Origin: Limnothrix sp. BL-A-16
GTDB lineage: Bacteria; Cyanobacteriota; Cyanobacteriia; CACIAM-69d
DNA length: 64,000 nt
Reading direction: 5' to 3'
NCBI GenBank assembly: GCA_041937175.2
Contig: CP166615.1
Coordinates: forward strand, 2,592,001 to 2,656,000
Each line of letters opens with the position of its first letter. Position 1 is the first letter of the stretch. Position numbers and translations under genes: made by a program. The notes below the pieces were generated by a model. That model saw nothing but the letters and a program-made list of their open reading frames with translations. It had not been told where the DNA came from and searched no databases. Positions 1,100 to 53,880 of this stretch are shown piece by piece.

Positions 1100-1140
1100 G
1101 GACGATTGATTGATAGGATTTTCTTATTAATCAATCGTCC
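1100..1140. other. Long inverted repeat / hairpin in the intergenic region
   Basis: GGACGATTGATTGATAGGA / TCTTATTAATCAATCGTCC arms around a short T loop; two mismatches. Confidence 0.6.
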
Positions 1141-1576
1141 AATCGCCCCCTGTGGGGCACGAAAGCCCCGTTACGCCGATCGCCCCTGAGGTTTAGAGGG
1201 CTGATTAGACCTGAGCAATCACGGCTCAGCAATTGCCAGGTGGCGATCACTGGGCGATCGGGAGCCAAAACACGCCCTCAGCAACTCCATCGGCCCCTGA
1301 CGGGCAATCACCACCGATTCCAGCTCCCCCAGACCGCTGAATCCAGCAACAGGCTACCCATCGGTTGCGATCGGCCCTGTCAAAATGGACAGCATGGGCA
1401 AATTCCAGGAGATCGCTATTCCGTTACTCCGTTGATGCTCAGGTGCTGATGCGACCTCAACGGATTCAGCCTCGCCCCATTCAAATTTGGTCTTTTGGTC
1501 GATTACCTGGTCTATTGATTTGGCCCATATGAGACCTCAATCCATGCATTCGCAACGCCTGTACCCACAACAGGAC

Positions 1577-2041
1577 TTACCCCAATAATCCCAACTGCCG
1601 CCGAGCCTCAAACAGCCCGATCGCGGTGCTTGACGATAGATTCAGGCTACGGACACCCGCACAGTCCATGGGAATGCGAGCAATCAGGTCGCAAGTTTCC
1701 AGCACCAAAGTCGGCAACCCCTCCGTTTCGCTGCCAAACAGCAGCCAATCCGTCGGGGCATAGGCGATGTGGTGATAGGACGTGCTGCCACCGCTGGAAA
1801 ATCCAATCAGCCGTCCCCCGATCGGGCGGTGAAATTCGGCAAAGGTCGGCCAATCGGCATGATAGCGAAGCTTGACAAACGGCCAGTAGTCCAGTCCAGC
1901 CCGTTTGAGGTAGCGATCGGTAATTTCAAAGCCCAAAGGGCCCACCAGGTGCAGTTCCGTACCGGTGGCAGCGCAGGTACGGGCAATATTGCCTGTATTG
2001 GGCGGAATTTGAGGATTAACCAGCACAATTTGGGGTTGCAT
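1577..2041 (-). CDS. trmL: tRNA (cytidine(34)-2'-O)-methyltransferase TrmL (SpoU family)
   Basis: PQIPPNTGNIARTCAAT, LKRAGLDYW, LLFGSETEGLP, VRSLNLS motifs; ATG 2041 chosen as start. Confidence 0.93.
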   Translation of the reverse strand: MQPQIVLVNPQIPPNTGNIARTCAATGTELHLVGPLGFEITDRYLKRAGLDYWPFVKLRYHADWPTFAEFHRPIGGRLIGFSSGGSTSYHHIAYAPTDWLLFGSETEGLPTLVLETCDLIARIPMDCAGVRSLNLSSSTAIGLFEARRQLGLLG

Positions 2042-2606
2042 GGAATTTTTTGGCAACTAAGGAACTGAGACAACGGTATTTCAGGGAAATTCACCCCAAA
2101 CCGCTCAATTGAGATCGTCAAACGAACCAAGATTTTTCACCCTGATTCGCCTGCTCCGGGAGGCTGACAACTATAGATTTTTTTAATCACTGACCGGGAA
2201 TCTCGATTGATTATCAAAAATAATTTAAAATCCGTCAAACATCATAATTACCAATCATTAATCGCGATTGAAAAACATAATCAATCGTGAATCGATCGCG
2301 ATCGCTCCTCAGCAGGCCCCAAGGGAACCTCCCCAGGCAAACAGCGGCCCGGCCACCCCTATGATTCCCATCCAACCCCGATTGGATCAGGCCCCCAGTC
2401 CACTACTGCGAACTTCGATCAGCGATCGGGCGGCCGATCAGGCCCAACAGTTGTGTTCAACAATACATATATATGGATGTGTACAGAGATGCCGACAAAC
2501 AAGCCGCACTGTCCCACAGCGATCCACAGCGCCTGGCATGATTCGGTATCATGAAAGATTGGGCTTTGATCAGTGGGGCGCACTTTGATCGCCGCCGCCA
2601 ATTTGC

Positions 2607-5090: not shown

Positions 5091-5166
5091 AATGACGGCT
5101 AGGGCGATCGAATATCTGTTGGCCGTCGTGCCAACGGTAGTTCCAACGAACGTATTTTGCGGGAAA

Positions 5167-5730
5167 TTATTGGGGTTGAGAAGCGGGATACCAAATTTCC
5201 AGAGTCCCGGGAGGCTCCTTATCTAACAACTTGAGTAGAGGGATGAGTTGGATATCACTCCATGCACCTTGGTTGACCAAACTCTTAATGCGTTTTGCTT
5301 TCACCATATCTTCTTCATAAAAAAATCGTACCTGAATTTCTGATTTGGGAAAATAATTCTGAACTTTCTCTGGCGGAACAACTCGATCTACAACCAAATT
5401 GCTCACCCGAGGAACCGATGCCCCATCATCCCTTAATTTACTCATGAGTGCCGTTGCATCATTGCGCTGCTTCTCTGAGGAAATGTGAATATAGATTGTG
5501 CTATTAATCAACGACTCTTTGGATCCATGATTGATCGTAGCGATCGCAGGAGCTGGTGTTACGTCAACGCTGGCTTTCACTGAGGGTGTGGGAGATGGCG
5601 TGGCAGCACTTCGATCTCCAAAGAGCTTATCCCAATTGCCTACAATCGAAGTAATGACGATGCCCAGGAATGTGATCATTGCTAAAACAACCTGAGTTAG
5701 CAATCCCCATTTTTCATTGCTGCTACTCAT
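5167..5730 (-). CDS. Hypothetical membrane-anchored protein (one N-terminal TM, Pro/Thr linker, C-terminal globular domain)
   Basis: GGAGG RBS before ATG 5730; hydrophobic LLTQVVLAMITFLGIVITSIVG; AT-rich gene. Confidence 0.65.
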   Translation of the reverse strand: MSSSNEKWGLLTQVVLAMITFLGIVITSIVGNWDKLFGDRSAATPSPTPSVKASVDVTPAPAIATINHGSKESLINSTIYIHISSEKQRNDATALMSKLRDDGASVPRVSNLVVDRVVPPEKVQNYFPKSEIQVRFFYEEDMVKAKRIKSLVNQGAWSDIQLIPLLKLLDKEPPGTLEIWYPASQPQ

Positions 5731-6164
5731 AACACCTCCATCCAGAAATTGAATGATTTCCATGAATTGGGCATTTTTAAAACCAAATTAAGCGAGATTT
5801 TTAAAATAAAATCATGTTTTTCTCAATTCATTCAACTAAGTTTTGATCGAAAACAAGTATCATCCTTATCTTGAATTAATTTCATTTGAGAATTATTTAT
5901 CATTATAGCCTTGACCAACAGTACAGGCATTGCTGTTTAACAAAAATATCTGAAAGTCAATTGATTTTATTTGATTTCTGAAAATTGATTTTTGAAATTT
6001 GATCGGAACTTTCAAAACCAAGCAATCTATCCGATAGTTGCCACTCCCTTTCAAGAATATGCCGATCGCTCTCTGATCGAAAATTTGGTCTTTCTTGATG
6101 GATTTGGTACGGTTGAAATTGTTGGCCAATCCACTAATCGTCTGTTTACTCGCTTGAGCTGCCT

Positions 6165-7232
6165 ATGTCTCCTGAAACTGCCACCCCCACGACTGTTCAA
6201 CCGGCCAAGACAGTGCATCTGCGCGAAACCGGCATCAACCCTAACCATTGGTATGTGGTGGCGAGCGATCGGGAAGTGACTCGCCAGCCGCTGGGCGTGG
6301 AGCTTTGGGGGCGGGCAATTGTCCTTTACCGCGATACCCAAGGGCAAGTGCAAGCGATGGAGGATTGCTGTCCCCATCGGCTGGTGAAGTTGTCGGATGG
6401 GCGTGTGGTGGGCGATCACATCGAGTGCATGTACCACGGTTGGCAGTTCGACAGCGCTGGAGCCTGTGTGGATGTGCCTTACCTGGGAGATCACCAAAAG
6501 CTGCCCAGTTGCCGAATCCATACCTACCCAGTGCGAGAACTGGATGGGTTCATTTGGTTGTGGCCAGGGGAATTGCAACCGGGACAGGTGTTGCCAGAAC
6601 CGATGGGGCTGCCGGAATGGAGCCACTTAAACTACATCGCTTCCGTGGCCACGATCGACTGTCGGGGCCATTTTTCCTTCCTGATTGAAAACCTGATGGA
6701 CATGTACCACGGGCATTTGCATCAGGACTACCAGGCTTGGGCTTCCGCGAAGTTGGAGAAGCTCACCGAATCGCCCGATCGGGTCGATGCTCTCTACGAA
6801 GCCCAAAGCTACTACCGAATTGACAAAATTTGGGCGGTGGCGCAACTGTTTATCCCCGCCATGCGCCAACTGCACCCGGAGCCGCTCTCGGTGAGCTATG
6901 TCTATCCCCACTGGGCCTCTAGCTTGGGCCAAGAATTCAAAATTTATTGCCTGTTTTGTCCCGTTAGCGCCACCCGCACTCGGGCCTATTTGGTGCATTT
7001 CACCTCCCTTCATGCCTTTGGCCGGCTGCATCAGTTGCCGGTGGTGATCCGCCAGTGGGTGAAAGATCGGATGTTTAATGCGGCGGCCAAGTTGCTGGAA
7101 GGGTTGGTGGAGCAGGATGTGTTGATGATTGAGCAGGAGCAGCGATCGTTTGAGGCGGATCCCCACCGCAAGGGGCCAGAGCTGAATCCCGCGATCGCGG
7201 CCGTGCAGCGCCTCATTCGATCGCGGGGCTAA
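6165..7232 (+). CDS. Rieske [2Fe-2S] aromatic ring-hydroxylating oxygenase alpha-subunit family protein
   Basis: Rieske CPHR...ECMYHGWQF; mononuclear Fe motif ENLMDMYHGHLH. Confidence 0.9.
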   Translation: MSPETATPTTVQPAKTVHLRETGINPNHWYVVASDREVTRQPLGVELWGRAIVLYRDTQGQVQAMEDCCPHRLVKLSDGRVVGDHIECMYHGWQFDSAGACVDVPYLGDHQKLPSCRIHTYPVRELDGFIWLWPGELQPGQVLPEPMGLPEWSHLNYIASVATIDCRGHFSFLIENLMDMYHGHLHQDYQAWASAKLEKLTESPDRVDALYEAQSYYRIDKIWAVAQLFIPAMRQLHPEPLSVSYVYPHWASSLGQEFKIYCLFCPVSATRTRAYLVHFTSLHAFGRLHQLPVVIRQWVKDRMFNAAAKLLEGLVEQDVLMIEQEQRSFEADPHRKGPELNPAIAAVQRLIRSRG

Positions 7233-7483
7233 TCAACAACCGCTGGGCTGGCCCATGAGTCATGAGAAGTGATTAGGAGTGATTAGGGGTAATTAACCGA
7301 CCGTTGATGAACCCATCATTCAAAAACAGCATGGGCCGGAGTCGCGCAATGTTCAGGGCGATCGCGCAAGGAAACGGGGAACTATGGCAAAGTTTCCTGG
7401 CTTAGGCCGCGATCGGGCTTTGATGCGGATTGTTTTCCCAACCTCCCCGATCGCGCCCTTGGGTTCCTTGCTTGCCCCAGCCC

Positions 7484-8410
7484 ATGCGACTCGAACAGTT
7501 ACAGGCCTTCCTTGCGATCGCGGATACCGGTGGTTTCCAGGCCGCCGCTAAGCGTTGCGGAGTCACCCAATCCACCATCAGCCGCCAACTTCAGAGCCTG
7601 GAGTCTACCCTGGGGCTAAGCCTGATTCGCCGCAGCACCCCCATCCAACTCACCCTCGCCGGTAACCAACTATTGCCTCACGCCCGGCGCATGGTGCAGG
7701 AGTGGGACTTGGCGAATCGGGCGATCGCCAACCTGCGCGAAGGTCAACAACCGGAACTCTGCATCGCCGCCATTCACTCCGTTTGCGCCTACCGACTGCC
7801 CGCCATTTTGCAGGACTTTATCCAAACCTATCCCCAGGTGCAATTGCGGGTGACGGCCTTGGGCAGCGATCGATCGCTCAAGGTATTGCGTGATGGGTTG
7901 GTGGATGTGGCCGTGGTCATGAATAACCGGTTTTTGACCAATAACGCCGATTGGGTGGTGGATTCCCTTTATAAGGAACCCGTGGTGGCCCTCGTCAGCG
8001 CCTCCCATCCCCTCGCCAACCACGGGCCCGTTTCCTGGCTGGATCTGGGGGAATATCCCCACGTGGTGTTCAAGGATGGCTACGGAATGCAGCGGTTGGT
8101 GCAGGAACAGTTTGCCCGCGAGGGAATTACCCTGCGGGTTGCCTTGGAACTGAACACCCTCGATGCCTTTCGGGGGGTTGTCCGCCAGGGAAAATGTGTG
8201 GCCCTTTTGCCAGAGTCAGCCGTGCTGGAGGCAAAGGAAGATCCAGGCTTGCGAGTATTACCGCTGGCGGATCCGGCGATCGAGCGGGAAGTGGTATTGG
8301 TGACAACGCGCGATCGACTGCAATTACAACCGATCAGCTATTTCCGACAGTTGGTGCAAGCCACCCTCCATCAACAGGCCTTGCTCCCCAACCGCCCGTT
8401 GGCCAAGTGA
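7484..8410 (+). CDS. ntcB: LysR-family nitrogen assimilation regulator NtcB
   Basis: MRLEQLQAFLAIADTGGFQAAAKRCGVTQSTISRQ HTH; ALGSDRSLKVLRDGLVD and FKDGYGMQRLVQEQF, recalled as typical of NtcB. Confidence 0.82.
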   Translation: MRLEQLQAFLAIADTGGFQAAAKRCGVTQSTISRQLQSLESTLGLSLIRRSTPIQLTLAGNQLLPHARRMVQEWDLANRAIANLREGQQPELCIAAIHSVCAYRLPAILQDFIQTYPQVQLRVTALGSDRSLKVLRDGLVDVAVVMNNRFLTNNADWVVDSLYKEPVVALVSASHPLANHGPVSWLDLGEYPHVVFKDGYGMQRLVQEQFAREGITLRVALELNTLDAFRGVVRQGKCVALLPESAVLEAKEDPGLRVLPLADPAIEREVVLVTTRDRLQLQPISYFRQLVQATLHQQALLPNRPLAK

Positions 8411-8456
8411 CCCGTGCTAGCCTACGGGAAACTGCTGTTTTCTGTCCCGATCGCCC

Positions 8457-8849
8457 TTGGCCACCATGGTTTTGTTCCCTTTCCAGCCTGTTGTGGGCGC
8501 AGTGTCTTCGGTTCCCAACGCGATCGGCCTGTGGATGGTCGTGGGCATTGATGGCCTCCTCTCGATCGGCCTGCTGTGGCTGGCTTGGCAACTGTGGCAA
8601 CTACGGCGCACCCTGCGGAACACCGCCCAGGGCCTGGAATCCGCCGCCCGCAGCACCCATACCGTCCTGGGCAATGCGCCGCAAAACATCGCGATCGGCC
8701 AGCGCGGCATCTATGGATTTCGCCAGACCTACCGCACCTTTGAGCCGGCCCTCGAAGCGAATCTTCAGAAAATCACCTGGGTGCTCTCCCTAATTCAACA
8801 ATTCACAAAACTCCAATCTCGCATTAAGCGATCCGCCCCCAAGCAATAG
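8457..8849 (+). CDS. Hypothetical membrane protein
   Basis: N-terminal TM segment then helical region; start uncertain. Confidence 0.6.
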   Translation: MATMVLFPFQPVVGAVSSVPNAIGLWMVVGIDGLLSIGLLWLAWQLWQLRRTLRNTAQGLESAARSTHTVLGNAPQNIAIGQRGIYGFRQTYRTFEPALEANLQKITWVLSLIQQFTKLQSRIKRSAPKQ

Positions 8850-9014
8850 CCAACTCATGGTTTATCCGCGAACCTTCGCCGATCCGAGTTAAACCACCGG
8901 GGCGATCGGTCAATGTGACCGGTGATGTGACCAAAAATACCCAAGATTGGACATTAACATTACCCAATCATAGGCTCCTCAGTTTCTCTAGAGGTGCTAA
9001 TTTTGCTGACTCAA

Positions 9015-9189
9015 TAGACCTCTTGCATCAATCAAAACCCTCACCCTAAATCCCTCTCCCAAGTCAGGAGAGGGACTTGACAACCAACAGCGAAATCGCC
9101 GTTATTCTCGATTTCTGGCTCCCCTTCGCCCTCCTTGGGAGAAGGGGTTGGGGGATGAGGGCTGTTAGCTGATTCGCGCAAGAGGTCTA
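9015..9189. mobile_element. MITE-like element (~175 bp) with terminal inverted repeats and TA ends
   Basis: TAGACCTCTTGC ... GCAAGAGGTCTA ends; internal imperfect inverted arms CCCTCACCCTAAATCCCTCTCCCAAG / CTTGGGAGAAGGGGTTGGGGGATGAGGG; no ORF. Confidence 0.7.
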
Positions 9190-9483
9190 GTGCCGCAAAA
9201 CCCATTCTGAGACTAGAATTTTCAGCCTTTGCCTCAGCCCCTGCCGGTGACCTCGCAAAGCCTGTCGCAAGACCCAGGCTCGATCGGTCTTTAAGCCACC
9301 AAACAGCACAGGATTATCTTTATCGATCGCCTCATGCCAAATTTGTGCAATTTTGACTTTGACTTATTTAATCCAGTTTTTGATCCCGACAGTTTTTGTT
9401 TATAAGTCTTGTGATTTAACTTTTTGATCACTTAAGTTGATTGCAGTTGGGTCGCACGTCTACTCTTGCTCGGTGGCATCATC

Positions 9484-12400
9484 ATGTCGGACTCTATCTT
9501 TGGCTTGCCTGAATTTGTAGAACCCACTCCTTTGGGCGTTGTACCCACTTCACAGCCAACGATCGACCTCAGCCGACTGTTGCCACCTGTCCTGGCCAAT
9601 GGCCTTTCCACCAGCGAGCGGTTGGAACAAATCCAGCAATTACAAACCGGTAGCCTCACGGATCCCATCCTAGGTTCCAACCCACAAGCCACGGTTCCAG
9701 CAGGCCGCACCCAAAATGTGCGCCGTAACCCCGCGTTGGGCAACGGCACATCCACGCCAACCGGCGATGGCGGACTGGGCGGAACAGCTTCACCGATCGA
9801 CCCCTTGACCGGTGACTCACTGGATGACTCATCCACCACAGCGGATGGCAGCACTGGGGCGATCGAGCCAAAGCCCGCCCTGACCAGCCTGTCCACCGCC
9901 CCCACGTCCCCCGACATTCAGTTCACCTCCGGCGCTTTCACGGCCCTGAGCGCAACAGCCAGCGTTGAATTTCAATGGGATGGTGGCGGCTATAGCAATA
10001 CTCAGTTAGGCATTTTTTCCCTGGAAGGCATGGAGCAATTCACGGGCGATGCCTTCCACCGAGAAGCCGCCCGCCGCGCCACCACCAACTCCCCCACCGG
10101 CCACCTGCTGATTGACGATCGCACCGAAGGCGCAAAGTTCAGCGGCAAACTGAATCACGAAGACAACTTCAACCAAGGCCCCTTCAACGGAGTCAAAACC
10201 TTCAGCATCACTCCCGGGGCCAAATATGGCTTGATCCTGATTCCCGATGGAAAACTGGCGGACATCGCCACGGGCGCAGCCCAGGCGGAGGGGTCGCGCC
10301 GTCCGCTCTATTCCATGGCCACCGCCAACCCGGATCAGCTTTTCCAAGCTGGGCAGTTGGTGGAAGTGGGTTCAGACCCAACCCGGGGCAACACCTACGT
10401 TTTTGAAGATTTACGCCTCGATCAAGGAAGCGATCGGGACTACAACGATATCGTCGTGCGGTTGCGTGGGTTTAGTGGCTCTGTCCCCTCGATCGACCAA
10501 TACATCGACTCCAACAAAGATTGGCGCAAGGAAGAAGCTGGCAAGCTGTTGTTAGCCGATGCCTTGCCCTACGTCACCGTTGAGCCATCGCAACCAGCCC
10601 CCAGCGCTCCCACCCCTAGTCCTAGTCCCGCTCCTGGCAACGATCCATCCAGCAGCACAACCACCCCACCAACCCCAGCCCCCGGCCCAACGCCGCCCAA
10701 CACGGAACCCCCAGCCCCCAGCACTCCAGTGCCCAGCACTACGCCTGTTATTTCACCGCTGGGCACTTTCCCCTGGACTTACCCAACGCCTGAGGATCTG
10801 GCAGCCGCAGCCATCACACCCGCCAGCAAATTCCCGATCGTTGGGGTGATCGACACGGGGTTTGCCCGCAGCAACCCGGATTTGGACTACAGCAAAATCG
10901 TTTGGGGCAAGGACTACATCGACAACGATGCCGATCCGCTGCTGAATCCCGGCGAGGGCAACGAACATGGCACCCACATTCTGGGTCTGATCTCCGCCCT
11001 CCGCAACAATGGTGTGGGGATTGATGGCCTCGCACCCGATGCGCCAATTTGGGCGGCGCGGGCCGTGGGTTCGGGCAACTGGGCCAAAGCCTTGGTTGAT
11101 TACGTGGATTACATCAAGAGCAAGGGTCAAACCCGTGGGTTGGTGAACCTGAGCTTTGACCTGACCCAAAAGAACGCCGACGGGACGATTTCGACGCGCT
11201 ACGAGTTCACCCCAGAAGAGCGGGTGGCGATCGAGACAGCTCGCCAAGCGGGCGTCATCTTAGTTGTGGCGGCGGGCAACAGTGGCACGGGGGATATGTC
11301 CGTGTTGGCTCAGGCGGCTCAGGAGTTTGACAACATCATTTCGGTGGCGGCGGCGGAACAGATCGATCGCTCGGTGGCGATCGCTGATGGAGCGGCCAAA
11401 ACCGACTATTCCAGCAGTGGCAAAAAGCTAACCCTCAGTGCGATCGGCGGGACGATCGAGCAGGGGATTCCATCGCTGCTGGCAGAAGGGCTAGGCACGA
11501 TGGCGGGCACGTCGGTTGCCACAGCGAAGGTGACGGCGAATGCGGCTCTGGCGTGGGCGGCGAATCCCAGCCTGAACTATCTGCAAGTCAAGGATGTTCT
11601 GACCAAAACAGCGACCGACATCGAAGCCCCTGGCTACGACGAGCTGACGGGGTATGGGATCGTCAATGGCGCAGCGGCAATTTCTTTGGCCAAAATGACG
11701 AAGGGCGAAACCTACAACCCTGAGCCTTGGTTTGCGCCGGATAGTTGGAGCGGCGAAGGATTTGCAACCCCTTGGGAACGCGAAGTAGCAGCCCTAGATT
11801 CCTACGCGATCAGGTCTAACCCAAGTAGCTCTGGATACATGGGGCTGTTTTTGTACGATGCCCGATGGTATCAAATGTCTGCTGAAGCTATTGAGCGTGA
11901 TGACGTAAGGCGCAATTTCCTAGGCTACTCCCATGCCACTTTTCGTACTTTTGTAGATTTCGTACCGCCTAGGATTAGCAATGATATTAGGTTAGTGCCT
12001 GTTGCTTACCATGCAGGAGTTCCCTACAAGTGGACAACCAAGAGTACAAGTACCCTAAAAGCCGAGTTAGGACGTGACCCCACTTTTGATGATCTCGTAC
12101 GGATTGCTAGACCGGATTTAGTTCCCGGGGATCCAGCCTATGCTGCGTTCGAGCTTTTCCTAGTACGACAGCACAAGGCACGTCCCGTAAGTACAACAGG
12201 AACGGGTCGGACAGGGGTTTTATCATCATCCCCGCTGGTCTATATTCCTCAGCCCTGGACGGAGCTAGCTAACTTTGCCACGCTAGTTCCTGACACTATC
12301 AGCCTCGCGAACAGCGCCTATGCTAAAAACGGTGGCTCTAGCACTTTAGGATCACCAGTATCCGGTCAAGGTTTAGGTAAATTCGACTCGCAAATCTACT

Positions 12401-15400
12401 CATCCTTGACAGTCAAGTCTCAAGTGTTGACTGGTGGTTCAGAAGGGGCAGGTGCACTGGTTTTAAACAGAGCCGAGAGTGAGGCCTTCTGGCTCAGAGG
12501 AGATTTCTTCATCGGTCAGTATATGATTGGTGCAGCCAACTTTGGACTGCCCACTTCGGATCGATACAAGTTTGGAAGTGGTGAGCGACAAGACTTTGAG
12601 ACAGGCGCTGTTTTTTATACAGGCTCTTCTTTCACTACCTTGCTTGGTCAGGCAGGAAGTTATTATCAAAAAACGCTGACGAACGCCCAGCGTAACCAAC
12701 TGGGTATGCTGACTGGATCAGCAGTTTTCTCCAATGGGCAATTTACTTACCCCTTCGCTGGTGGCAGCCTAAAGTACAGCTCGTCGGGCGTATTCTCCAT
12801 CGAGTTTAACTGGACAAATTATCCTTCCGTAGCTGCTGGTAACTGGACGGGTACAGGATCAGTACGTCTGCAAAATCCGCCTCAACCTGGGACGATGGCT
12901 GGTTTACCCAATACAGCAGGTGCTTATCAATACAGCACTAGAAGTGCCAACGGTGCGATCGCCCACTATTACGCGAATGGCAACCTTCAGCAACAACCCA
13001 ACAGCGCCAAGATCTACTGGTATCAAATACCGGGCACTACCCAGTTGTCATCAACCAACCCCATTACTACACCAACATCAACCAAACTCACTCCTGCTTC
13101 AGTACTCTTCGATCAGCCTGTCATCAGCTATGAGAGTAACGCGCCAGCATCACTCAATCTTTATTCAAGTCTCAAGCAAGGAAGTTTGAGCAGCACCAAC
13201 CCTGACGACCTGTTCTATTTTGATGTTACGAAGCCTGGCGAGTATATTCAGTGGAACGCCAAAACATTGTCTGGCAATCTCAGGATGCAAATTATTCGGG
13301 ATGCCAACAATAACAACCTTTTGGATGCTAACGAAACAGTCAAGACAATTTCTCTAGGCTCCAATAGCAGCCAATCGATGACTTTTGAGGACAAGGGACG
13401 TTACTATATTCGTCTTTTGCCTGAATCTGGAAGTTCAGCAAGCTACCAGTTGAGTGCGATCGGCTCGCCTTACCGCCCCCTTCATCACGGCGCTGACTTC
13501 AACCGTGACGGGCTAACCGATTTTGCGTACCAAGGAAAAGGAGCTGGCAACAATAGTGCAAGCGTATTTACCTATGGTGCTGCTGGGATCGGCAAATTCA
13601 CTGATCTTCGTAATGATCTTGAGGGTAGTCGTGTCAACTTGATTTGGGGTGACTTTAATGGCGATCGTCGCCCAGACTACATCCGGCAGGAAAAAGCAGA
13701 TTGGGCAACTTGGAACAATAGCAACAATACAAGCAACATTAATGGAAACAACACTACTGAAAACAACACTGAATTGTGGCTAGCTGGTGCTGATGGCAAG
13801 AGTTTTTACGAGGAGCGGGATCTAGAGGCAGCGACTGGTAGTAGCTTCAATGGCAATTTTGTAAACCTCATCCCTGGCGATTTCAATGGCGATGGGAAAA
13901 CAGACTTCATCCGCCAAGAAAAAAGTGACTGGGATAACCATGGCAGTCGCGATGCCGAAGTGTGGCTCAATACGGGTGCTGTTGACTTCAAAATGGTTCA
14001 CAGCCTGACTTTCAATGGCGATGGATTTAAGGGTGATTACGTCAACCTCATCCCTGGCGACTTTGATGGTGACGGCCGGACAGATTTTATCCGACAGGAG
14101 AAAAATAACTGGGATGACGATGGAAGCAACACAGCCGTTGTGTTTCTGTCTAATGGCAATGGCCAGTTTCGTCAGGGAGCCGTTCTCAATAACTCCGAAA
14201 ATGATCTGCGGGGAGATTTTACGAATCTAATCCCCGGTGACTTCAATGGTGATGGAAAAACAGACTTCATTCGTCAGGAAAAGAATACCTGGGATGACGA
14301 TGAAGGTCGTACCGCCGAAGTCTGGCTATCCAATGGAGGTATGAGTCAATTCACTCGTGTTTCAACTCCTCTCCGCCATGATGGTGATGACTTCAAGGGT
14401 AGTTTCGTCAATATTATTCCCGGTGACTTCAATGGCGACGGGCGCACTGATATCCTGCGCCAGAAGTTTGGCCCACGAGATCAGGACAACCATCGAACAG
14501 CAGAAATTTTTCTGTCAAATGGAGATGGGACGTTCAGCAAAAATCCCCAATTGATTCAGTATGGGAATAACTATTTCAAAGGAACCTCCACCAACATTTT
14601 GACGGGCGCACTGGGCGGTACTGCTCCATTTTACGAACATACAGACAGCAGGAGTGGCTGGGTTGTTGAGTATCATGGCTGGCCTAGCAATCGTCCCAAA
14701 CCTGTGGATTTAGGGTGGGATCGTGATGATGTTCTTGGATCGACGCGGCTTGATTCCAATATCCGTTCAGATGGTAAGCGTGGCTTCCAGATGGATTGGG
14801 GACATGATGCGCCGGATGCGCGAGTTCCTAATGATCAGTTTGCGATGCGTGCCTATACTCAATACAGCTTTGAGGCAGGTAAGACCTATGTGGCAAAGGT
14901 GAAAGCAGATGATGGTTATCGTCTCTTTGCCAAACATATTGGCACGAACAAATGGGAAAACTTCATGGCCGATGGATTCCGTAAAGATGCTTACGGAGCG
15001 CACAAAGAAATTCAGTTTACTGTGCCGCAGTCGGGTACCTATGACTTCCACTTCGAGTTCTATGATGACACCAGCGATGCCTACTTCGATTTAACAATTG
15101 ATGAGGCTTCTCGTGTAGAAAACTACTACCCTAACATCGAGTCAACACTCATCGAGTTCTTTGGAAATCGTGCCAATACAAATGGCGAAGATTGGTCTCA
15201 AAGGAGCATTGACACAATGTGGGATCGTATTTCTGGTGAGAGTGCTCAGTTTGGAACCAGAGCGAGTAGTTTCTATGATTCTGGAGATATTTGGCAGCAG
15301 GATTCGCCTGAGGATATTTTGAGAATTTATGACGATCTTTCTCGGGATATTCTAGGGTCTGTTAAGCCTCTGACCACGGGCTATGCCTATGACAGAGGAT

Positions 15401-16338
15401 ACTACTCAGCGTATGGTGCTCATTCTGGCTTGGATATTGATACCATTCGTGGAGATGTAATTCGATCTGCAACACGAGGAAAGTTCGCTTTTGCCAAGCA
15501 CTATCAGTCTCCTGGGAATCCCAACGGTTGGTGGATTGCAATTGACGAGATAGATGCTAATGATGCAAGAACTGGACGGCGCTGGTGGTACGGACACCTT
15601 GGTAGCTCTCGCTTCTCATCTGTTGGGGAAATCATTGAGCGTGGAACTGTGATTGGAGATGCTGGCGACGAGAGTGGCTATGCAAACCATCTTCATCTTA
15701 TGGTGGTGAATACATACGGAGACCCACCAACTTCTTGGAATGAGGCGGTTAACGGGACAGGACGTGGTTATGCAGGAGATGTACAAAACGTCCTAGAACG
15801 AACCATGAGCCCACTCCAAGCTTACTGGGAGTCTCGCAATGAGAATGGGCAACCTCCTGGTAACAATATTCAAGTGCCTAGTAGTGGAACTGTCAGTCAA
15901 GCAGGTTTAGAGTTCATTGCTCGGCATGAAGGTCTACGATTGGATCTGTACAACGATCCTGCAGGACATTGCACAATTGGTGTTGGTCATCTAGTTCATC
16001 GAGGTAACTGCAACGGCAGTGAATCAACAGAGTTTCGGAACGGAATTACAAGAGACCGTGCCCTTGATCTTCTGAACCAAGATGCTAGTGGCGCAGCCAA
16101 CACCGTCCGCCAGTACGTAACTGTGCCTTTGAATCAGAATCAGTTTGATGCTTTGGTCAGCTTTGTTTTTAATGTGGGATCGGGTAACTTTCAAGCATCC
16201 AATCTCTTAATACGTTTGAACCAAGGAGAGTATAGTGCTGTTCCTTCAGAGCTCAATCGTTGGAATAAGGCTGGTGGTGTGGTACTACCAGGCTTAGTTA
16301 CACGCCGGAAGGAAGAAGGCGATCTCTTTACCAGCTAG
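9484..16338 (+). CDS. Giant multidomain protein: DUF4114-like, Pro-rich linker, S8 subtilase, LGFP-like, PPC, FG-GAP repeats, PA14, M23 peptidase, GH24 lysozyme
   Basis: Uninterrupted ~2,284-codon ORF from ATG 9484. Motifs: FEDLRLDQGSDRDYNDIV; VIDTG/EHGTH/AAGNS/GTSVA; six G/ADFxxD repeats; ADDGYRL; HSGLD/YGHL/HLH; HEGLRLDLYNDPAGHCTIGVGH...LNQNQFDALVSFVFNVG...GLVTRRKEE. Confidence 0.88.
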   Translation: MSDSIFGLPEFVEPTPLGVVPTSQPTIDLSRLLPPVLANGLSTSERLEQIQQLQTGSLTDPILGSNPQATVPAGRTQNVRRNPALGNGTSTPTGDGGLGGTASPIDPLTGDSLDDSSTTADGSTGAIEPKPALTSLSTAPTSPDIQFTSGAFTALSATASVEFQWDGGGYSNTQLGIFSLEGMEQFTGDAFHREAARRATTNSPTGHLLIDDRTEGAKFSGKLNHEDNFNQGPFNGVKTFSITPGAKYGLILIPDGKLADIATGAAQAEGSRRPLYSMATANPDQLFQAGQLVEVGSDPTRGNTYVFEDLRLDQGSDRDYNDIVVRLRGFSGSVPSIDQYIDSNKDWRKEEAGKLLLADALPYVTVEPSQPAPSAPTPSPSPAPGNDPSSSTTTPPTPAPGPTPPNTEPPAPSTPVPSTTPVISPLGTFPWTYPTPEDLAAAAITPASKFPIVGVIDTGFARSNPDLDYSKIVWGKDYIDNDADPLLNPGEGNEHGTHILGLISALRNNGVGIDGLAPDAPIWAARAVGSGNWAKALVDYVDYIKSKGQTRGLVNLSFDLTQKNADGTISTRYEFTPEERVAIETARQAGVILVVAAGNSGTGDMSVLAQAAQEFDNIISVAAAEQIDRSVAIADGAAKTDYSSSGKKLTLSAIGGTIEQGIPSLLAEGLGTMAGTSVATAKVTANAALAWAANPSLNYLQVKDVLTKTATDIEAPGYDELTGYGIVNGAAAISLAKMTKGETYNPEPWFAPDSWSGEGFATPWEREVAALDSYAIRSNPSSSGYMGLFLYDARWYQMSAEAIERDDVRRNFLGYSHATFRTFVDFVPPRISNDIRLVPVAYHAGVPYKWTTKSTSTLKAELGRDPTFDDLVRIARPDLVPGDPAYAAFELFLVRQHKARPVSTTGTGRTGVLSSSPLVYIPQPWTELANFATLVPDTISLANSAYAKNGGSSTLGSPVSGQGLGKFDSQIYSSLTVKSQVLTGGSEGAGALVLNRAESEAFWLRGDFFIGQYMIGAANFGLPTSDRYKFGSGERQDFETGAVFYTGSSFTTLLGQAGSYYQKTLTNAQRNQLGMLTGSAVFSNGQFTYPFAGGSLKYSSSGVFSIEFNWTNYPSVAAGNWTGTGSVRLQNPPQPGTMAGLPNTAGAYQYSTRSANGAIAHYYANGNLQQQPNSAKIYWYQIPGTTQLSSTNPITTPTSTKLTPASVLFDQPVISYESNAPASLNLYSSLKQGSLSSTNPDDLFYFDVTKPGEYIQWNAKTLSGNLRMQIIRDANNNNLLDANETVKTISLGSNSSQSMTFEDKGRYYIRLLPESGSSASYQLSAIGSPYRPLHHGADFNRDGLTDFAYQGKGAGNNSASVFTYGAAGIGKFTDLRNDLEGSRVNLIWGDFNGDRRPDYIRQEKADWATWNNSNNTSNINGNNTTENNTELWLAGADGKSFYEERDLEAATGSSFNGNFVNLIPGDFNGDGKTDFIRQEKSDWDNHGSRDAEVWLNTGAVDFKMVHSLTFNGDGFKGDYVNLIPGDFDGDGRTDFIRQEKNNWDDDGSNTAVVFLSNGNGQFRQGAVLNNSENDLRGDFTNLIPGDFNGDGKTDFIRQEKNTWDDDEGRTAEVWLSNGGMSQFTRVSTPLRHDGDDFKGSFVNIIPGDFNGDGRTDILRQKFGPRDQDNHRTAEIFLSNGDGTFSKNPQLIQYGNNYFKGTSTNILTGALGGTAPFYEHTDSRSGWVVEYHGWPSNRPKPVDLGWDRDDVLGSTRLDSNIRSDGKRGFQMDWGHDAPDARVPNDQFAMRAYTQYSFEAGKTYVAKVKADDGYRLFAKHIGTNKWENFMADGFRKDAYGAHKEIQFTVPQSGTYDFHFEFYDDTSDAYFDLTIDEASRVENYYPNIESTLIEFFGNRANTNGEDWSQRSIDTMWDRISGESAQFGTRASSFYDSGDIWQQDSPEDILRIYDDLSRDILGSVKPLTTGYAYDRGYYSAYGAHSGLDIDTIRGDVIRSATRGKFAFAKHYQSPGNPNGWWIAIDEIDANDARTGRRWWYGHLGSSRFSSVGEIIERGTVIGDAGDESGYANHLHLMVVNTYGDPPTSWNEAVNGTGRGYAGDVQNVLERTMSPLQAYWESRNENGQPPGNNIQVPSSGTVSQAGLEFIARHEGLRLDLYNDPAGHCTIGVGHLVHRGNCNGSESTEFRNGITRDRALDLLNQDASGAANTVRQYVTVPLNQNQFDALVSFVFNVGSGNFQASNLLIRLNQGEYSAVPSELNRWNKAGGVVLPGLVTRRKEEGDLFTS

Positions 16339-16347
16339 ATACGAAGC

Positions 16348-16372
16348 GGGCGATCGCCCTTGCTAGACTGGG
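16348..16372 (+). repeat. 25-bp direct repeat, copy 1 (HIP1 core plus TGcTAGACT extended -10-like motif)
   Basis: GGGCGATCGCCCTTGCTAGACTGGG; matches 17086-17110 at 24/25; ~40 bp upstream of the antitoxin ATG. Confidence 0.75.
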
Positions 16373-16413
16373 AATCGCCAGCCGATCGCCCCCACGAGAT
16401 CTGAGGCAACCCT

Positions 16414-16647
16414 ATGGCTCTGTTAACGCTGGAAATTTCCCTAGAGATTCTTTTAGAAGCGATCGCCCATTGGGATCGGAGTGATCGACTGCAACTGTGG
16501 CAATTCCTCAGTGACGATCTTTTCAGCGATGTGGAAACAGAGATCGATCGATCGCCCACCGAAGATCTCCGACAATCACTTCAGGAAATGCACTCAGGGC
16601 AAACTTTTCCCATCGAACAAATGTGGCTGGTCGTCGAAGCCAATTAA
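16414..16647 (+). CDS. Putative antitoxin (small acidic protein upstream of a RelE-like toxin)
   Basis: 77 aa, acidic, ends LRQSLQEMHSGQTFPIEQMW; 6 bp upstream of the toxin. Confidence 0.7.
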   Translation: MALLTLEISLEILLEAIAHWDRSDRLQLWQFLSDDLFSDVETEIDRSPTEDLRQSLQEMHSGQTFPIEQMWLVVEAN

Positions 16648-16653
16648 CCAGCC

Positions 16654-16986
16654 ATGTCAATCGAGGTTACACCCACCTTCACGCGAAAGGTTCGCACCCT
16701 GCTTAAGCGTTATCGAAGTCTGCGCCAAGACTTACAGCCCATACTAGACCAACTCGCGCAGGGCGAACGTCCCGGTGATCGCCTCCAAGGCATGTCGCTT
16801 AACGTCTTCAAAGTACGAATTAAAAACAGTGATATTGGCAAGAGAAAAAGCGCTGGATATCGTCTGATCTATTACGCAGAATTAGCAGAACGAATTGTTC
16901 TATTAACGATTTATAGCAAAAGTGATCGCACAGATATTGGTTCGCAAGAAATTCTTGAAATTCTTCGTGAATTCGATTCGCCCTAA
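16654..16986 (+). CDS. Type II toxin, RelE/ParE (HigB2-like) family
   Basis: GDRLQG...VFKVRIKNSDIGKRKSAGYRLIYY...IVLLTIYSKSD. Confidence 0.85.
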   Translation: MSIEVTPTFTRKVRTLLKRYRSLRQDLQPILDQLAQGERPGDRLQGMSLNVFKVRIKNSDIGKRKSAGYRLIYYAELAERIVLLTIYSKSDRTDIGSQEILEILREFDSP

Positions 16987-17085
16987 AATAGCATCATGCA
17001 CCTCGATGATCAGCAACCTTAAAGATCATAGCTGCGATCCGAGTTTGATAAGGCGACCGTAGCACTATGATCGTGACCCATCGCA

Positions 17086-17110
17086 GGGTGATCGCCCTTG
17101 CTAGACTGGG
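17086..17110 (+). repeat. 25-bp direct repeat, copy 2
   Basis: GGGTGATCGCCCTTGCTAGACTGGG, 40 bp upstream of the Uma2 ATG. Confidence 0.75.
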
Positions 17111-17150
17111 GTTCAGTTCCCTTGGCTTGCAGCGTTGCTCACCCTAGCCC

Positions 17151-17768
17151 ATGGTTGCCCTGCCCGATCGCCTCTCCGTCACGGACTACTTTGCCCTAGA
17201 AGCCATCAGCCCCACCAAGCATGAGTATTGGGATGGCTATCTGGTGGCCATGGCCGGGGCGAGCGATGCCCATGTGGCGATCGTGGGCAACCTATTTGCT
17301 GCGCTGTTGGGACACATTGCGCCGCCCTGTCGGATCTATATAACTGATATGCGCCTGCAAATTGCCAATAAAAATCGCTATTTTTATCCCGATCTCCTGG
17401 TGACTTGCGACCCCAGAGATACGATCATTACGCCTGAAAATAATTACGCCAAACAGTTTCCAACCTTAATTGTTGAAGTGCTGTCAGACACCACAGAACT
17501 ACGCGATCGCGGTAGCAAGTTTTTTGACTATCAACAGATCGAAAGTCTCCAGGAATATGCCCTGATTAATACCAATTGTCAGCGCGTTGAATGCTTCCGT
17601 CGTAACCAGGAGGATGATTGGGTACTGACCACCTACACACCCGATCGCGCCGATCGATTCCAACTCAAATCCATCGACTTTACGGGAACCCTGACGCAGC
17701 TTTATCGCAATGCGATCGCCCTGCCCAGTTCCCCAGCCTTTGATTCAGACCCACCCGATCGCCCTTAG
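17151..17768 (+). CDS. Uma2 (DUF820) family PD-(D/E)xK endonuclease-like protein
   Basis: KHEYWDGYLVAMAGASDAH, YFYPDLLVTCD, LIVEVLSDTTELRDRGSKF, SLQEYALI. Confidence 0.9.
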   Translation: MVALPDRLSVTDYFALEAISPTKHEYWDGYLVAMAGASDAHVAIVGNLFAALLGHIAPPCRIYITDMRLQIANKNRYFYPDLLVTCDPRDTIITPENNYAKQFPTLIVEVLSDTTELRDRGSKFFDYQQIESLQEYALINTNCQRVECFRRNQEDDWVLTTYTPDRADRFQLKSIDFTGTLTQLYRNAIALPSSPAFDSDPPDRP

Positions 17769-18093
17769 TCGCCATCACCGTCACTATCTCCTATGGCAGT
17801 TTTATCCACTTGATGGGAGGAGCGATTGCCCTTGCTCGGCCCGCCAGCCCTCGCTCTTGCAACAATTAAAGGCTTTTATTAAAGATTGAATGAAGGATTG
17901 TCCGAAAAAAGGTTTTTAGTTGCTTAAGTTAAAGATTTTGTGAAAAGTAGACTCAAAAACGACTAATTTGGCGGATATTTTTTAAGTTTTAATTGATACA
18001 TCAAAGCTTATTTATCTCCAGCTCTATCGATATAATCAATGCAGGGTGACAGTCATTGAATTGTCTTCATCTTGATATTCCCCCCATAGATCT

Positions 18094-19014
18094 ATGAAGC
18101 TTCTTAAAACGGCTCTGAGTTTGACTGCGATTGTCACCTCTTCAGTGGCCGCCTGCTTGGCAGGTTCTGCGCCAGCCCAAGCCTATCGAATGTTTTTAGG
18201 CGAAGATTTAAATTCAAACCCTTGGGCTCCAACCTCTAATCGCACCAACTCTCAGGCAGCAGAAGCCGCTTTTTTGTCAAATTTGACCGGTGTGGGTACT
18301 GAGACCTTTGAAAGTCAAATCACCGGCACTAACAATCTTCTAAATGTTTCATTTCCCGGAGCTGGAACGGCAACACTCTCGGGAAATGGTCGAATTTCAA
18401 GCGTGCCCGTGGGCTGGACAAATGGCGTTGGTCGCTATGCCGTTTCTGGGACTCAATTTTGGGAAGTGGACGCTGGGGGACACTTCACAATCAATTTCAG
18501 TCAGCAGGTGGGAGCTTTTGGGTTTTATGGGGTTGATATTGGTGATTTTGGTGGCCAATTAACCCTGACTTTGGCGGGCGCATCCACCACAAAACAGGTG
18601 ACGGTTAATAACACAATCGGCTCGTCGGGCAGCACGGATGGTTCTGTGCTGTTCTTTGGCATTATTGCGGAAACGATGGAGGAGGCGTTCAGTAGTGTTT
18701 CCTTCAGCATGTCAACGGGTCAAGGCGATGTTTTTGCCTTTGACAACATGACGGTGGGCGGTCTGTCTCAGGTCAAAACTCCGGAGCCATCCCCCCAGCC
18801 CAGTCCTGAGCCGACTCCGGAACCCAGTCCTGAACCCACTGTGACTCCGGAACCCGGCCCTAGCCCAACCCCCAGCCCCTCAGCAACTCCTACGCCGCAA
18901 CCCACGCAGCCCACGGATCCGGTGTCAGTGCCGGAGCCGGGATCGATCGGGGCCTTGTTCCTGGTGGGAGCCATGGGAGTCCTGGGTTTGGGTCGTCGTC
19001 GCCGCGCTGACTGA
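18094..19014 (+). CDS. PEP-CTERM sorting-domain surface protein with Pro/Thr/Glu-rich linker
   Basis: Signal peptide ending APAQA; C-terminal VPEPGSIGALFLVGAMGVLGLGRRRR; PEP(S/T) repeats. Confidence 0.88.
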   Translation: MKLLKTALSLTAIVTSSVAACLAGSAPAQAYRMFLGEDLNSNPWAPTSNRTNSQAAEAAFLSNLTGVGTETFESQITGTNNLLNVSFPGAGTATLSGNGRISSVPVGWTNGVGRYAVSGTQFWEVDAGGHFTINFSQQVGAFGFYGVDIGDFGGQLTLTLAGASTTKQVTVNNTIGSSGSTDGSVLFFGIIAETMEEAFSSVSFSMSTGQGDVFAFDNMTVGGLSQVKTPEPSPQPSPEPTPEPSPEPTVTPEPGPSPTPSPSATPTPQPTQPTDPVSVPEPGSIGALFLVGAMGVLGLGRRRRAD

Positions 19015-19181
19015 TAGGTAAGCCAAAGCTGTACAACGGGATCGCTGATCGGGAAGATTGCAGGAAATCTAAAGAAGCACCTGCAAGAGATCGAGAGGCA
19101 TCGGAGACAATGCCAAGCTGGAAAGATTCCCAGCTCGGGTTTCTGCCGCTTGGTTCTCTCTTCCTTCAACGGGTTAAAACC

Positions 19182-20543
19182 ATGACCGATCGACCTGCGC
19201 TGCTGATTCGGAACGCTCGCATCCTGTTGCCCGAAGGGGATTTCCTGCAAGGCGATGTGTGGATCGAAGGCGATCAGATTCGGCAGGTGGCTCCTGAAAT
19301 TTCCCCCGACACGATCGGGCCGATCGACCGTGAAATTGACGCAACGGGTTTGACCCTGTTGCCGGGCGCGATCGACCCTCAAGTTCATTTCCGCGAACCA
19401 GGTTTAGAGCATAAAGAGGATCTCCGAACCGCCAGCCATGCCTGTGCCAAGGGCGGTGTCACCTCCTTTTTGGAGATGCCTAACACCAAGCCCTTAACCA
19501 CCACTCAAGCCACGCTGCAAGACAAGCTCGATCGCGCGGCGAGTAAGTGCGTGGTCAACTATGGCTTTTTCATTGGAGCCACCGCCGATCGGTTGCCGGA
19601 TTTGATCACGGCGAACCCCGTTTGCGGCATCAAGATCTTTATGGGGTCAATGCATGGCCCCTTGTTGGTGGATGAGGAGCCAATCCTTGATCAAATTTTT
19701 GCGATGGGGCAACAGCCGGGACAAACGGGCTATGGGCGCTTAATTGCTGTCCATGCCGAAAACCAAGATCGGATTCGTCAGCGCCGGGAGCAATTTGCGG
19801 GCATTACCGATCCGGCAATCCATTCCCAAATTCAAGACAACCAAGCCGCGCTGGAGGCCACACAACTGGCCCTCAAGTTGGCGCGGAAGCATCGTCGGCG
19901 GCTGCACATCTTGCACATGTCCACGGGTGATGAGGCGAACCTGATGCGTCAGGACAAGCCCGAATGGGTGACCTGTGAAGTTACCCCCCAACATTTGCTG
20001 CTGGATGTGAGTGCCTACGAAACGATCGGCACTTTTGCGCAAATGAATCCCCCCCTGCGATCGCCTGAAGATTGCGCAATTTTGTGGCAGGCCCTGCTAG
20101 ATGGGGTCATTGATTTCATTGCCACTGACCACGCCCCCCACACCTTGGAAGAAAAGGCGCAACCCTATCCCAACAGTCCCAGCGGAATGCCGGGGGTGCA
20201 AACCTCCTTGCCCCTAATGCTGACCCAGGCGGCGGCGGGGCGCTGCACGGTGGCTCAGGTGGCCCGGTGGATGTCAACCAATGTGGCCAAGGGGTTTGGC
20301 ATTCCCAACAAGGGGGCGATCGCTCCCGGATTGGATGCGGATTTGGTGTTGGTGGATCTCAATCACTACCGTCCGGTGCTGCGGGAAGAAATGCTGTCCA
20401 AATGTGGTTGGAGTCCCTTTGAGGGGTGGAATCTCACGGGTTGGCCGGTTTACACGATCGTGGGCGGCCAGGTGGCCTATGAAAACGGCCAGGTTAATGA
20501 GTCGGTGCGTGGTCGGGCCTTGAGGTTTGAACCGGCGGTGTAG
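19182..20543 (+). CDS. pyrC: Dihydroorotase (amidohydrolase superfamily)
   Basis: PGAIDPQVHFREPG, EMPNT, VHAE, HILH, MNPPLR, ATDHAPH. Confidence 0.88.
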   Translation: MTDRPALLIRNARILLPEGDFLQGDVWIEGDQIRQVAPEISPDTIGPIDREIDATGLTLLPGAIDPQVHFREPGLEHKEDLRTASHACAKGGVTSFLEMPNTKPLTTTQATLQDKLDRAASKCVVNYGFFIGATADRLPDLITANPVCGIKIFMGSMHGPLLVDEEPILDQIFAMGQQPGQTGYGRLIAVHAENQDRIRQRREQFAGITDPAIHSQIQDNQAALEATQLALKLARKHRRRLHILHMSTGDEANLMRQDKPEWVTCEVTPQHLLLDVSAYETIGTFAQMNPPLRSPEDCAILWQALLDGVIDFIATDHAPHTLEEKAQPYPNSPSGMPGVQTSLPLMLTQAAAGRCTVAQVARWMSTNVAKGFGIPNKGAIAPGLDADLVLVDLNHYRPVLREEMLSKCGWSPFEGWNLTGWPVYTIVGGQVAYENGQVNESVRGRALRFEPAV

Positions 20544-53788: not shown

Positions 53789-53834
53789 AGCAAGAGCAAG
53801 AGCAGGGAGAGATCGGAAAGTTTTGAAATTTTAA

Positions 53835-53880
53835 CGGAATTCAGCGACGGAATTGAGCGACGGAGTTGAGCGATGGAACT
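53835..53880. repeat. Short tandem repeat, 13-mer x ~3.5
   Basis: CGGAATTCAGCGA CGGAATTGAGCGA CGGAGTTGAGCGA TGGAACT. Confidence 0.7.

Follow-up and report, generated by a model that had tools for sequence, protein, structure and literature searches.

A Limnothrix gene that looks like a mosaic giant cell-wall-lytic effector, with a conserved lectin and protease front and a recently swapped-in tail of two wall-cutting enzymes

The 64,000-nucleotide (nt) stretch of Limnothrix sp. BL-A-16 analyzed here (contig CP166615.1, positions 2,592,001 to 2,656,000; called the window below and numbered from its first base) carries on its forward strand a single unbroken open reading frame (ORF) that runs from an ATG at 9484 to a stop codon ending at 16338 and encodes 2,284 amino acids (aa). 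An alternative in-frame TTG start lies upstream at 9466. The encoded protein joins a DUF4114 domain and an S8 subtilase to a long C-terminal part that ends in an M23 peptidase and a GH24 lysozyme, and it is the only DUF4114-S8 gene in the genome (4.56 Mb in 2 contigs, 100% complete, G+C fraction of 0.552). It looks like a mosaic giant cell-wall-lytic effector, in which a conserved lectin and protease front has recently acquired a tail of two wall-cutting enzymes.

The original prediction, made from the sequence of the window, had described one giant ORF with DUF4114, S8, six FG-GAP repeats, M23, and a C-terminal GH24 domain. This description holds above Pfam cutoffs, which S8, M23, and GH24 each exceed in domain searches, and the predicted catalytic positions of these three enzymes all proved exact on a motif check. 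The S8 domain scores 120.2 bits against a gathering score of 21.8 (Pfam PF00082), placing it among the subtilases, and its triad is intact and in the subtilisin order (D457 at 10852, H495 at 10966, and S677 at 11512), with the oxyanion asparagine N599 in AAGNS (11278). In a family alignment of 77 sequences, the aspartate is retained in 74, the histidine in 74, the serine in 76, and the oxyanion asparagine in 75. The mycosin model of the type VII secretion system, NCBIfam TIGR03921, gave 105.9 bits, under its cutoff of 278.75. The DUF4114 region, which the family alignment covers over residues 150 to 370, belongs to a domain described in PMC9109919 as Ca dependent, lectin-like, and sugar binding. 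Compared with the ortholog in a genome of the same genus, the carrier is under purifying selection, with a ratio of nonsynonymous to synonymous divergence (Ka/Ks) of 0.156 overall, 0.086 in DUF4114, and 0.111 in S8.

The N terminus of the protein begins with a peptide of about 30 residues that has 10 invariant positions in an alignment of 6 N termini. This peptide is neither a Sec signal nor the basic leader with an LEPxLTPSG motif that occurs in other members of the family. There are no lysines or arginines in the first 20 residues and no hydrophobic core, and the maximum Kyte-Doolittle value within the first 80 aa is 1.14 in a 12-residue window, bearing out the earlier statement that a Sec signal is lacking; hydropathy gave no segment of transmembrane grade across the whole 2,284-aa protein. 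Treating the N terminus as a degenerate form of the family leader was rejected, as a hidden Markov model (HMM) of the leader scored 0.0 bits (the best frame genome-wide scored 13.6 bits). A tblastn search with the first 45 residues found no second protein in the genome that shares them.

At the other end of the protein, the M23 domain contains all of the residues of its family, H1980 and D1984 (HSGLD at 15421), H2038 (YGHL), and H2069/H2071 (HLH), and these five are invariant in a 7-sequence alignment, assigning the domain to M23. In a structural model of residues 1905 to 2284, the predicted local distance difference test score (pLDDT) is 75 to 90 over the M23 part and <40 over the GH24 part, and the M23 part alone was used for fold matching. 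The predicted fold, moderately confident, resembles LytM, lysostaphin, zoocin A, and EnpA, with Foldseek matches to LytM (4zyb) and lysostaphin (4qpb) at E values of 6e-6 to 2e-5; the top match of this model is a chain of the cyanophage A4 pre-ejectosome (9k2v_A). A phmmer search of the pre-M23 and M23 segment against PDB sequences returned nothing meaningful. The GH24 domain has the signature E2149 (15928)-x8-D2158-x5-T2164, which places it in that family, and it matches a solved lysozyme (PDB 6et6, E = 1.8e-27) and the PHROG endolysin family phrog_7 (5e-49).

Support for the modules between the protease and the two hydrolases is uneven. The FG-GAP region contains six Ca-loop motifs, [AG]DF[ND]xDxxxD, at 13492 to 14451. 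The predicted PPC domain falls below the Pfam cutoff, at 15 to 20 bits, but is backed by a match to ColH chain 3jqw (E = 1.4e-5), and the predicted PA14 domain is borderline, scoring 17 bits in the whole protein and, when searched as a sub-segment, 24.5 bits where the cutoff is 24. LGFP-like repeats, also predicted, were not confirmed: nothing in residues 770 to 1231 exceeds a Pfam cutoff, and at E values of ≤10 the only match is LGFP at 13.7 bits (E = 0.08, residues 1021 to 1047). A search of the ESM Atlas with this region gave no usable match, and an AlphaFold2 model of residues 770 to 1235, based on a 5-row alignment, has a mean pLDDT of 36. The coordinates of all segments are collected in Table 1.

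Table 1. Segments of the giant ORF, in window coordinates (res, residues of the protein)
Feature	Position	Strand	Evidence or remark
Whole ORF, 2,284 aa plus stop	9484-16338	+	Open-frame analysis
N-terminal peptide of ~30 residues, MSD..FGLPEF.E..P.G..P..QP.ID	9484-9573	+	Kept in the gene's own subclade
DUF4114 region	9931-10593 (Pfam core 10210-10467)	+	Pfam 3.1e-14, 54 bits, res 243-328
Pro/Ser/Thr-rich linker	10633-10803	+	33% Pro over res 373-445
Peptidase S8	10834-11658	+	Pfam 1.4e-34, res 451-725
End of constant module, motif P-x-x-W-x-G-E-G-x-V-T-P-x-E-R-A	11719-11792	+	Conserved in family; junction 1 follows
Region without assigned family, ~460 aa	11791-13176	+	Weak LGFP-like match at 12544-12624 is the sole family signal
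PPC-like (pre-peptidase C-terminal/collagen-binding-type) beta domain	13177-13467	+	ColH 3jqw, PDB, E = 1.4e-5
FG-GAP/integrin-like beta-propeller	13492-14658	+	FG-GAP_3 in 6 stretches, 56.6 bits
PA14-like domain, borderline	14716-15183	+	24.5 bits on sub-segment; junction 2 at its end
Peptidase M23 (LytM/lysostaphin type)	15418-15708	+	Pfam 31.9 bits versus 28.7 cutoff, res 1979-2075
GH24 (T4-type) lysozyme	15889-16329	+	Pfam PF00959, 143.1 bits, 7e-42, res 2147-2278

The C-terminal part of the gene has been replaced as a cassette. The syntenic locus of a genome of the same genus (L014) matches the window at 88 to 94% nucleotide identity over 137 to 11760, 16353 to 16631, and 17090 to 20307, and the segment in between, 11761 to 16352, has no nucleotide match in that genome. 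This segment spans from just after S8 to 14 nt past the stop codon. The ortholog in L014 is 1,907 aa long and has LGFP as its only recognized domain after S8; behind it come a Uma2 fragment, an 87-aa ORF, and a PIN gene. The same genome contains a second paralog (on L015), which ends in an AHH nuclease. Directly downstream of that paralog is a 371-aa ORF (L015:5485-6600, minus strand) with marginal DALR/ArgRS-like Pfam matches, a possible immunity candidate. Within the gene studied here, the G+C content at third codon positions (GC3) is 0.57 to 0.73 over 9484 to 11883 and goes down to 0.34 to 0.50 over 11884 to 16338. The payload is thus foreign in base composition, and the sequence reads as a payload exchanged horizontally on a carrier inherited vertically.

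Two junctions can be placed. At the first, the match to the same-genus ortholog ends at about 11760, and public contigs switch at 11792. At the second (about 15059 to 15196), two relatives (P0003 and P0004) and public contigs (X3 and X11) change to other warheads. The X3 and X11 contigs bridge the locus and carry 571 other bases in place of 11793 to 12843, and about 1,940 other bases in place of 15060 to 16350. A further public contig (X12, 24.5 kb) carries 10297 to 16376 at ≥90% likeness in different surroundings. This evidence from public assemblies is confined to bridging contigs and joints, and parts of the locus that they leave uncovered were not used.

Relatives of the protein show the same mosaic pattern. 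Identity to P0002 is 20 to 35% over the first 180 residues, about 73% in DUF4114, 82 to 100% from S8 to residue 900, and 57 to 70% over residues 961 to 1140, and it is 97 to 100% in each 60-residue bin of the warhead (residues 1921 to 2284). P0003 and P0004 track the protein until about residues 1860 to 1904 and then differ, ending in another M23 plus an unassigned domain and in a C39-like peptidase, respectively. In P0071, the stretch from FG-GAP to M23 stands behind a Calx-beta N terminus, without S8. Within the carrier, synonymous divergence from the same-genus ortholog is also unequal (Ks of 0.18 in DUF4114 versus 0.88 in S8), a gap that we take as a further sign of mosaic ancestry. Variability of the C terminus over a conserved N-terminal part, a feature by which polymorphic toxins are recognized, is therefore present at this locus and among the homologs.

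A search with the whole length of the protein returned 98 proteins, 80 of which have S8 and 70 of which have both DUF4114 and S8 according to precomputed Pfam lists. The named sources of these hits are filamentous cyanobacteria, including Limnothrix, Microcoleus, Coleofasciculus, Laspinema, Desertifilum, Geitlerinema, Pseudanabaena, Nostoc, and others. Warheads were counted in the 76 S8-bearing proteins among P0002 to P0079. The gene is one of at least 76 relatives and no singleton. At least one peptidoglycan hydrolase is present in 50 of the 76 (M23 in 33, CHAP without M23 in 15, VgrG3-like_C in 1, and GH25 in 1), and some have Amidase_3, GH19, or GH108 as second enzymes. Lipase domains occur in 6, C39-like peptidases in 2, Toxin-deaminase in 1, and CdiA_C in 1. 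GH24 occurs in just 1 of these relatives, P0002. Recurrent pairs in the family (M23 with GH108, M23 with Ntox44, CHAP with M23, Amidase_3 with CHAP, and GH19 with M23) suggest that selection has favored a design in which two enzymes attack murein. Binding modules are equally diverse and include LGFP, LysM, SH3_3, PA14, PPC, tectonin, and SBBP, as well as ricin-, B-, and C-type lectins. The family is patchily distributed: in a phylum-wide sample of 401 genomes, 50 have a DUF4114-S8 match at an E value of ≤1e-30, a number that is a floor since the first look used a stricter filter. The original prediction had named an invariant architecture with a housekeeping role as an outcome that would speak against it; the C termini proved highly variable, and in the same-genus ortholog the cassette is another one. 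Its idea of a modular carrier with an outward-directed cargo of two peptidoglycan hydrolases gains support from the variable ends of the homologs and from the cassette change at the same locus.

Many relatives begin with a leader, consisting of a short basic N terminus, the motif FILEPILTPSG(L/I)(L/V)DG or WQRLERLNTPSPI, and an acidic stretch. A profile built from 26 N termini detects it in 29 of the 98 hits, 24 of which were seeds and match by construction; no Sec-like N terminus was seen among the family members examined. In two relatives (L015:14180-17320 and L016:13384-16580), the giant gene adjoins, in divergent orientation, genes for an M50-like membrane metalloprotease of about 505 aa and for an HlyD-family adaptor of about 504 to 520 aa. 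The metalloprotease scores 31.8 bits against Pfam M50 and 127 bits against NCBIfam daptide_HExxH, below the latter's cutoff of 300. It occurs in 27 of the 401 sampled genomes, and 24 of these also belong to the 50 that gave a DUF4114/S8 match; since the genomes are related, this overlap does not amount to a statistical test. Around M50-like genes, 11 of 15 loci have an ORF of 1,422 to 3,093 aa within 8 kb, and all 11 of these giant ORFs start with the leader (7 by profile and 4, as variants, by eye); an HlyD-like gene is adjacent at 11 of the 15 loci. M50-like genes also stand beside giant DUF4114(-S8) genes at L031 to L038 and L042. At one other locus (L040, G126:C1:3926000-3945000), inspection by eye placed an M50-like gene beside ORFs resembling a contractile-injection sheath (APGVYVEE), DUF4255, and an AAA ATPase.

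We tentatively suggest, while thinking the odds to be somewhat against it, that DUF4114-S8 proteins are an undescribed, cyanobacteria-wide set of polymorphic effectors that mature and are exported by a route of their own, in which the leader is recognized by the adjacent M50-like intramembrane metalloprotease (of the daptide/YydH HExxH type) acting with HlyD. The gene studied here would be a leaderless derivative with a recently acquired M23-GH24 warhead that uses another route or acts after lysis. A leader-peptidase system in the style of RiPPs (peptides made on the ribosome and modified after translation) would then have been co-opted for proteins of 1,400 to 3,000 aa. A full-text literature search, with most subscription journals outside its coverage, returned nothing on the DUF4114-S8 family or on the M50-like/HlyD arrangement.

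The genes around the giant ORF are ordinary chromosomal genes and no prophage: RecG, a Rieske oxygenase, and a LysR regulator lie upstream, and an amidohydrolase, PurD, and a histidine kinase lie downstream. No phage structural or lysis genes were found in the surrounding 20 kb. Directly 3' of the gene, a 77-aa ORF precedes a 110-aa RelE-like ORF (16414 to 16986; RelE at 24.7 bits, below cutoff, and phrog_5869 at 1.6e-14), and this pair is probably a type II toxin-antitoxin system, not an immunity gene. The X3 and X11 contigs have 24 other bases in place of 16475 to 17088. The window has three genes of the Uma2 family (putative restriction endonucleases), at 17151 to 17768, 59466 to 60062, and 60156 to 60773, the first of which matches the PADLOC candidate family PDC-S03 (1.4e-21). 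A role in antiphage defense for the giant gene itself was considered and rejected, since PADLOC gives only IetS, at 16.4 bits, on its S8 part.

Other features of the window are of less direct concern. At 18094 to 19014, a 306-aa protein carries a signal-like segment at its N terminus, a Pro-rich stretch (PEPTPEP), and, at its C terminus, the tail VPEPGS...GLGRRRR, which we take to resemble a PEP-CTERM sorting signal. A 176-bp element at 9015 to 9190, 290 bp upstream of the gene start, resembles a miniature inverted-repeat transposable element, with terminal inverted repeats TAGACCTCTTGC...; it has 20 blastn matches in the genome, the 15 best of which are 88 to 100% identical. The same-genus genome and the X1, X3, and X11 contigs lack it at the corresponding site. 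Farther downstream, 52000 to 62000 is a second stretch of lower G+C fraction (0.49 to 0.51) and encodes an adenylate/guanylate cyclase, a ClpB-like ATPase, DUF4126, two of the Uma2 proteins, and an AbiEii-like protein, all unrelated to the giant gene.

The reading that we favor, with a probability of roughly 55%, is that the gene product is an exported bacteriolytic effector resembling a polymorphic toxin; the comparison is a working likeness, and the protein is not a proven member of that class. A conserved carrier, exchangeable cassettes with sharp junctions, and relatives with classic toxin ends together follow the logic of polymorphic toxins. The carrier (residues 1 to 768) would comprise the N-terminal peptide, the lectin-like DUF4114 domain, the Pro-rich linker, and an active S8 subtilase, and the payload (residues 770 to 2284) would combine binders of surfaces or glycans (the PPC-like domain, the FG-GAP propeller, and the PA14-like domain) with the two-enzyme warhead. 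The protein would leave the cell by a non-Sec route. Its lectin and propeller modules would attach it to a polysaccharide or to the surface of a cell, and the S8 protease would trim or free the payload. M23 would then cut peptide cross-links and GH24 glycan strands, lysing the exposed murein of neighbors in mats or blooms.

Several observations weigh against this reading. No export signal was recognized in the protein, the family leader is undetectable in it by the leader HMM, and searches of the complete genome with protein queries and NF041824 did not find the M50-like/HlyD pair. Neither TssC of type VI secretion systems (T6SS) nor a phage-type contractile sheath or extracellular contractile injection system was found in the genome, which has one C39-ABC/type I HlyD pair far from the gene (G000:C1:3.493-3.497 Mb). 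The locus therefore shows neither a recognized trafficking domain nor a linked secretion apparatus, by which polymorphic toxins are likewise recognized. Nor was an immunity gene found in or after the cassette, as the original prediction had noted: the swapped segment holds only the 3' part of the gene itself, homology to the sister genome is back 15 nt past the stop codon, and the X12 contig shares just 38 nt beyond the stop, the next ORFs being the toxin-antitoxin-like pair and Uma2. About 460 aa (residues 770 to 1231) remain without a domain explanation, and processing of the protein by its own S8 domain is something that we purely infer. The outer membrane of Gram-negative bacteria, moreover, normally bars peptidoglycan hydrolases applied from outside, which bears on the range of possible targets.

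The missing immunity gene and secretion signal would also fit an endogenous role, in which two murein hydrolases would act on the cell's own murein or sheath (in filament breakage, at the septum, or in programmed lysis), with S8 as the activator and the binding modules as a tether. The concentration of the family in filamentous cyanobacteria, by source names of the hits, is in keeping with such an autolysin. However, the hydrolase cassette is not kept within the genus, where the syntenic ortholog has no recognizable hydrolase, the cassette is foreign in composition, and the family is patchy (50 of 401 genomes). In relatives, moreover, the same carrier is joined to an AHH nuclease, a deaminase, CdiA_C, or a lipase, which would be senseless for wall remodeling, and we consider this role improbable; both the exchange of the cassette and its foreign composition speak against filament or sheath remodeling, which the original prediction had kept as an alternative. 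A third possibility dispenses with export altogether: the protein could be stored in the cytoplasm and freed as some cells die, as are colicins and pyocins, digesting neighbors or debris for competition or nutrients. Because murein is out of reach in the cytoplasm, no immunity would be needed, and the intact active sites and the failure to find a signal peptide, leader, dedicated exporter, or immunity gene in the genome all suit such a bacteriolysin. Against it, the gene has neither a lysis gene nor a regulator linked to it, and leader-bearing relatives appear to have a dedicated membrane protease/adaptor pair, which argues that the family is actively exported; we regard release by lysis as unlikely.

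Phage ancestry would account for the foreign composition of the cassette, for the matches of GH24 and M23 to phage endolysin families, and for the cyanophage A4 pre-ejectosome chain as the best predicted fold match of M23; the tail would then be a lysin, or a remnant of a virion-associated wall-degrading protein, that became joined accidentally to a protease gene of the host. A chance event is, however, difficult to reconcile with the occurrence of the same fusion in an independent assembly (P0002) and on an independent contig, with the recurrence of a carrier and variable tail in at least 76 proteins, or with purifying selection on the carrier, and the surrounding 20 kb is devoid of phage genes. 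We therefore view a phage remnant as highly improbable.

The exported effector that we favor has partial counterparts among known systems. Its M23 fold, full set of Zn-binding and catalytic residues, and binding modules are shared with bacteriolysins such as lysostaphin, zoocin A, and EnpA, which are secreted antibacterial wall hydrolases of about 250 to 500 aa, exported through Sec by Gram-positive bacteria and having one catalytic domain; the present protein, in contrast, is cyanobacterial, is 2,284 aa long, and has an S8 protease and GH24 as a second hydrolase. Attack on both glycan and peptide from one polypeptide is a property of phage virion-associated hydrolases that combine lysozyme-like and M23 domains, such as phi29 gp13, and the GH24 module matches endolysin families. 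Unlike those enzymes, this protein has no phage context, and its M23-then-lysozyme order closes a giant multidomain host protein. T6SS hydrolase effectors (the VgrG3 C-terminal domain and Tae/Tge) are likewise interbacterial warheads directed at murein, and one relative (P0054) carries T6SS_VgrG3-like_C (3e-54), but a search of the genome did not find TssC, the gene lacks an immunity partner, and its carrier shows no relation to VgrG, PAAR, or Hcp. The FG-GAP region is 30 to 39% identical to that of RHS/TcdB_midN proteins (P0073 and P0080 to P0096), but the protein lacks the RHS/YD shell, SpvB, and TcdB_midN of RHS/Tc-type toxins.

The closest parallel is with polymorphic toxins. Relatives of the protein end in AHH, Toxin-deaminase, CdiA_C, and Ntox44. 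With polymorphic toxins that have built-in processing peptidases (Zhang, de Souza, Anantharaman, Iyer, and Aravind 2012; PMC3482391), the family shares an N-terminal part that stays constant, binding or repeat modules in the middle, and C-terminal toxin domains that are exchanged by recombination; that paper places subtilisin among the processing proteases. A full-text search for the term DUF4114 in the indexed text of that paper returned no occurrence. The likeness stops at several points: this protein has no recognized trafficking domain (signal peptide, two-partner secretion [TPS], PAAR, WXG/LXG, or Photorhabdus virulence cassette [PVC] metallopeptidase), no immunity gene follows it, and its warhead is a pair of murein hydrolases, not a nuclease. 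The earlier claim that no characterized protein has this architecture is fair for the exact order of domains, but the design of a polymorphic toxin with a built-in subtilisin already appears in PMC3482391. The polymorphic-toxin-like design itself is thus known, but the cyanobacterial carrier is new, and it bears a rare M23-GH24 warhead without an immunity partner.

Interbacterial weaponry is poorly charted in cyanobacteria, and this locus offers a clean natural case of cassette replacement, with junctions resolved to the base level inside one gene by comparison of sister genomes. The family that it points to has at least 76 giant members, in which a lectin-protease carrier is combined with swappable murein hydrolases, lipases, and nucleases. 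The leader and the M50-like/HlyD pair of its relatives would be a candidate new export route for very large proteins, and, if these proteins are secreted antibacterials, they would be relevant to the ecology of mats and blooms and a source of modular lytic enzymes.

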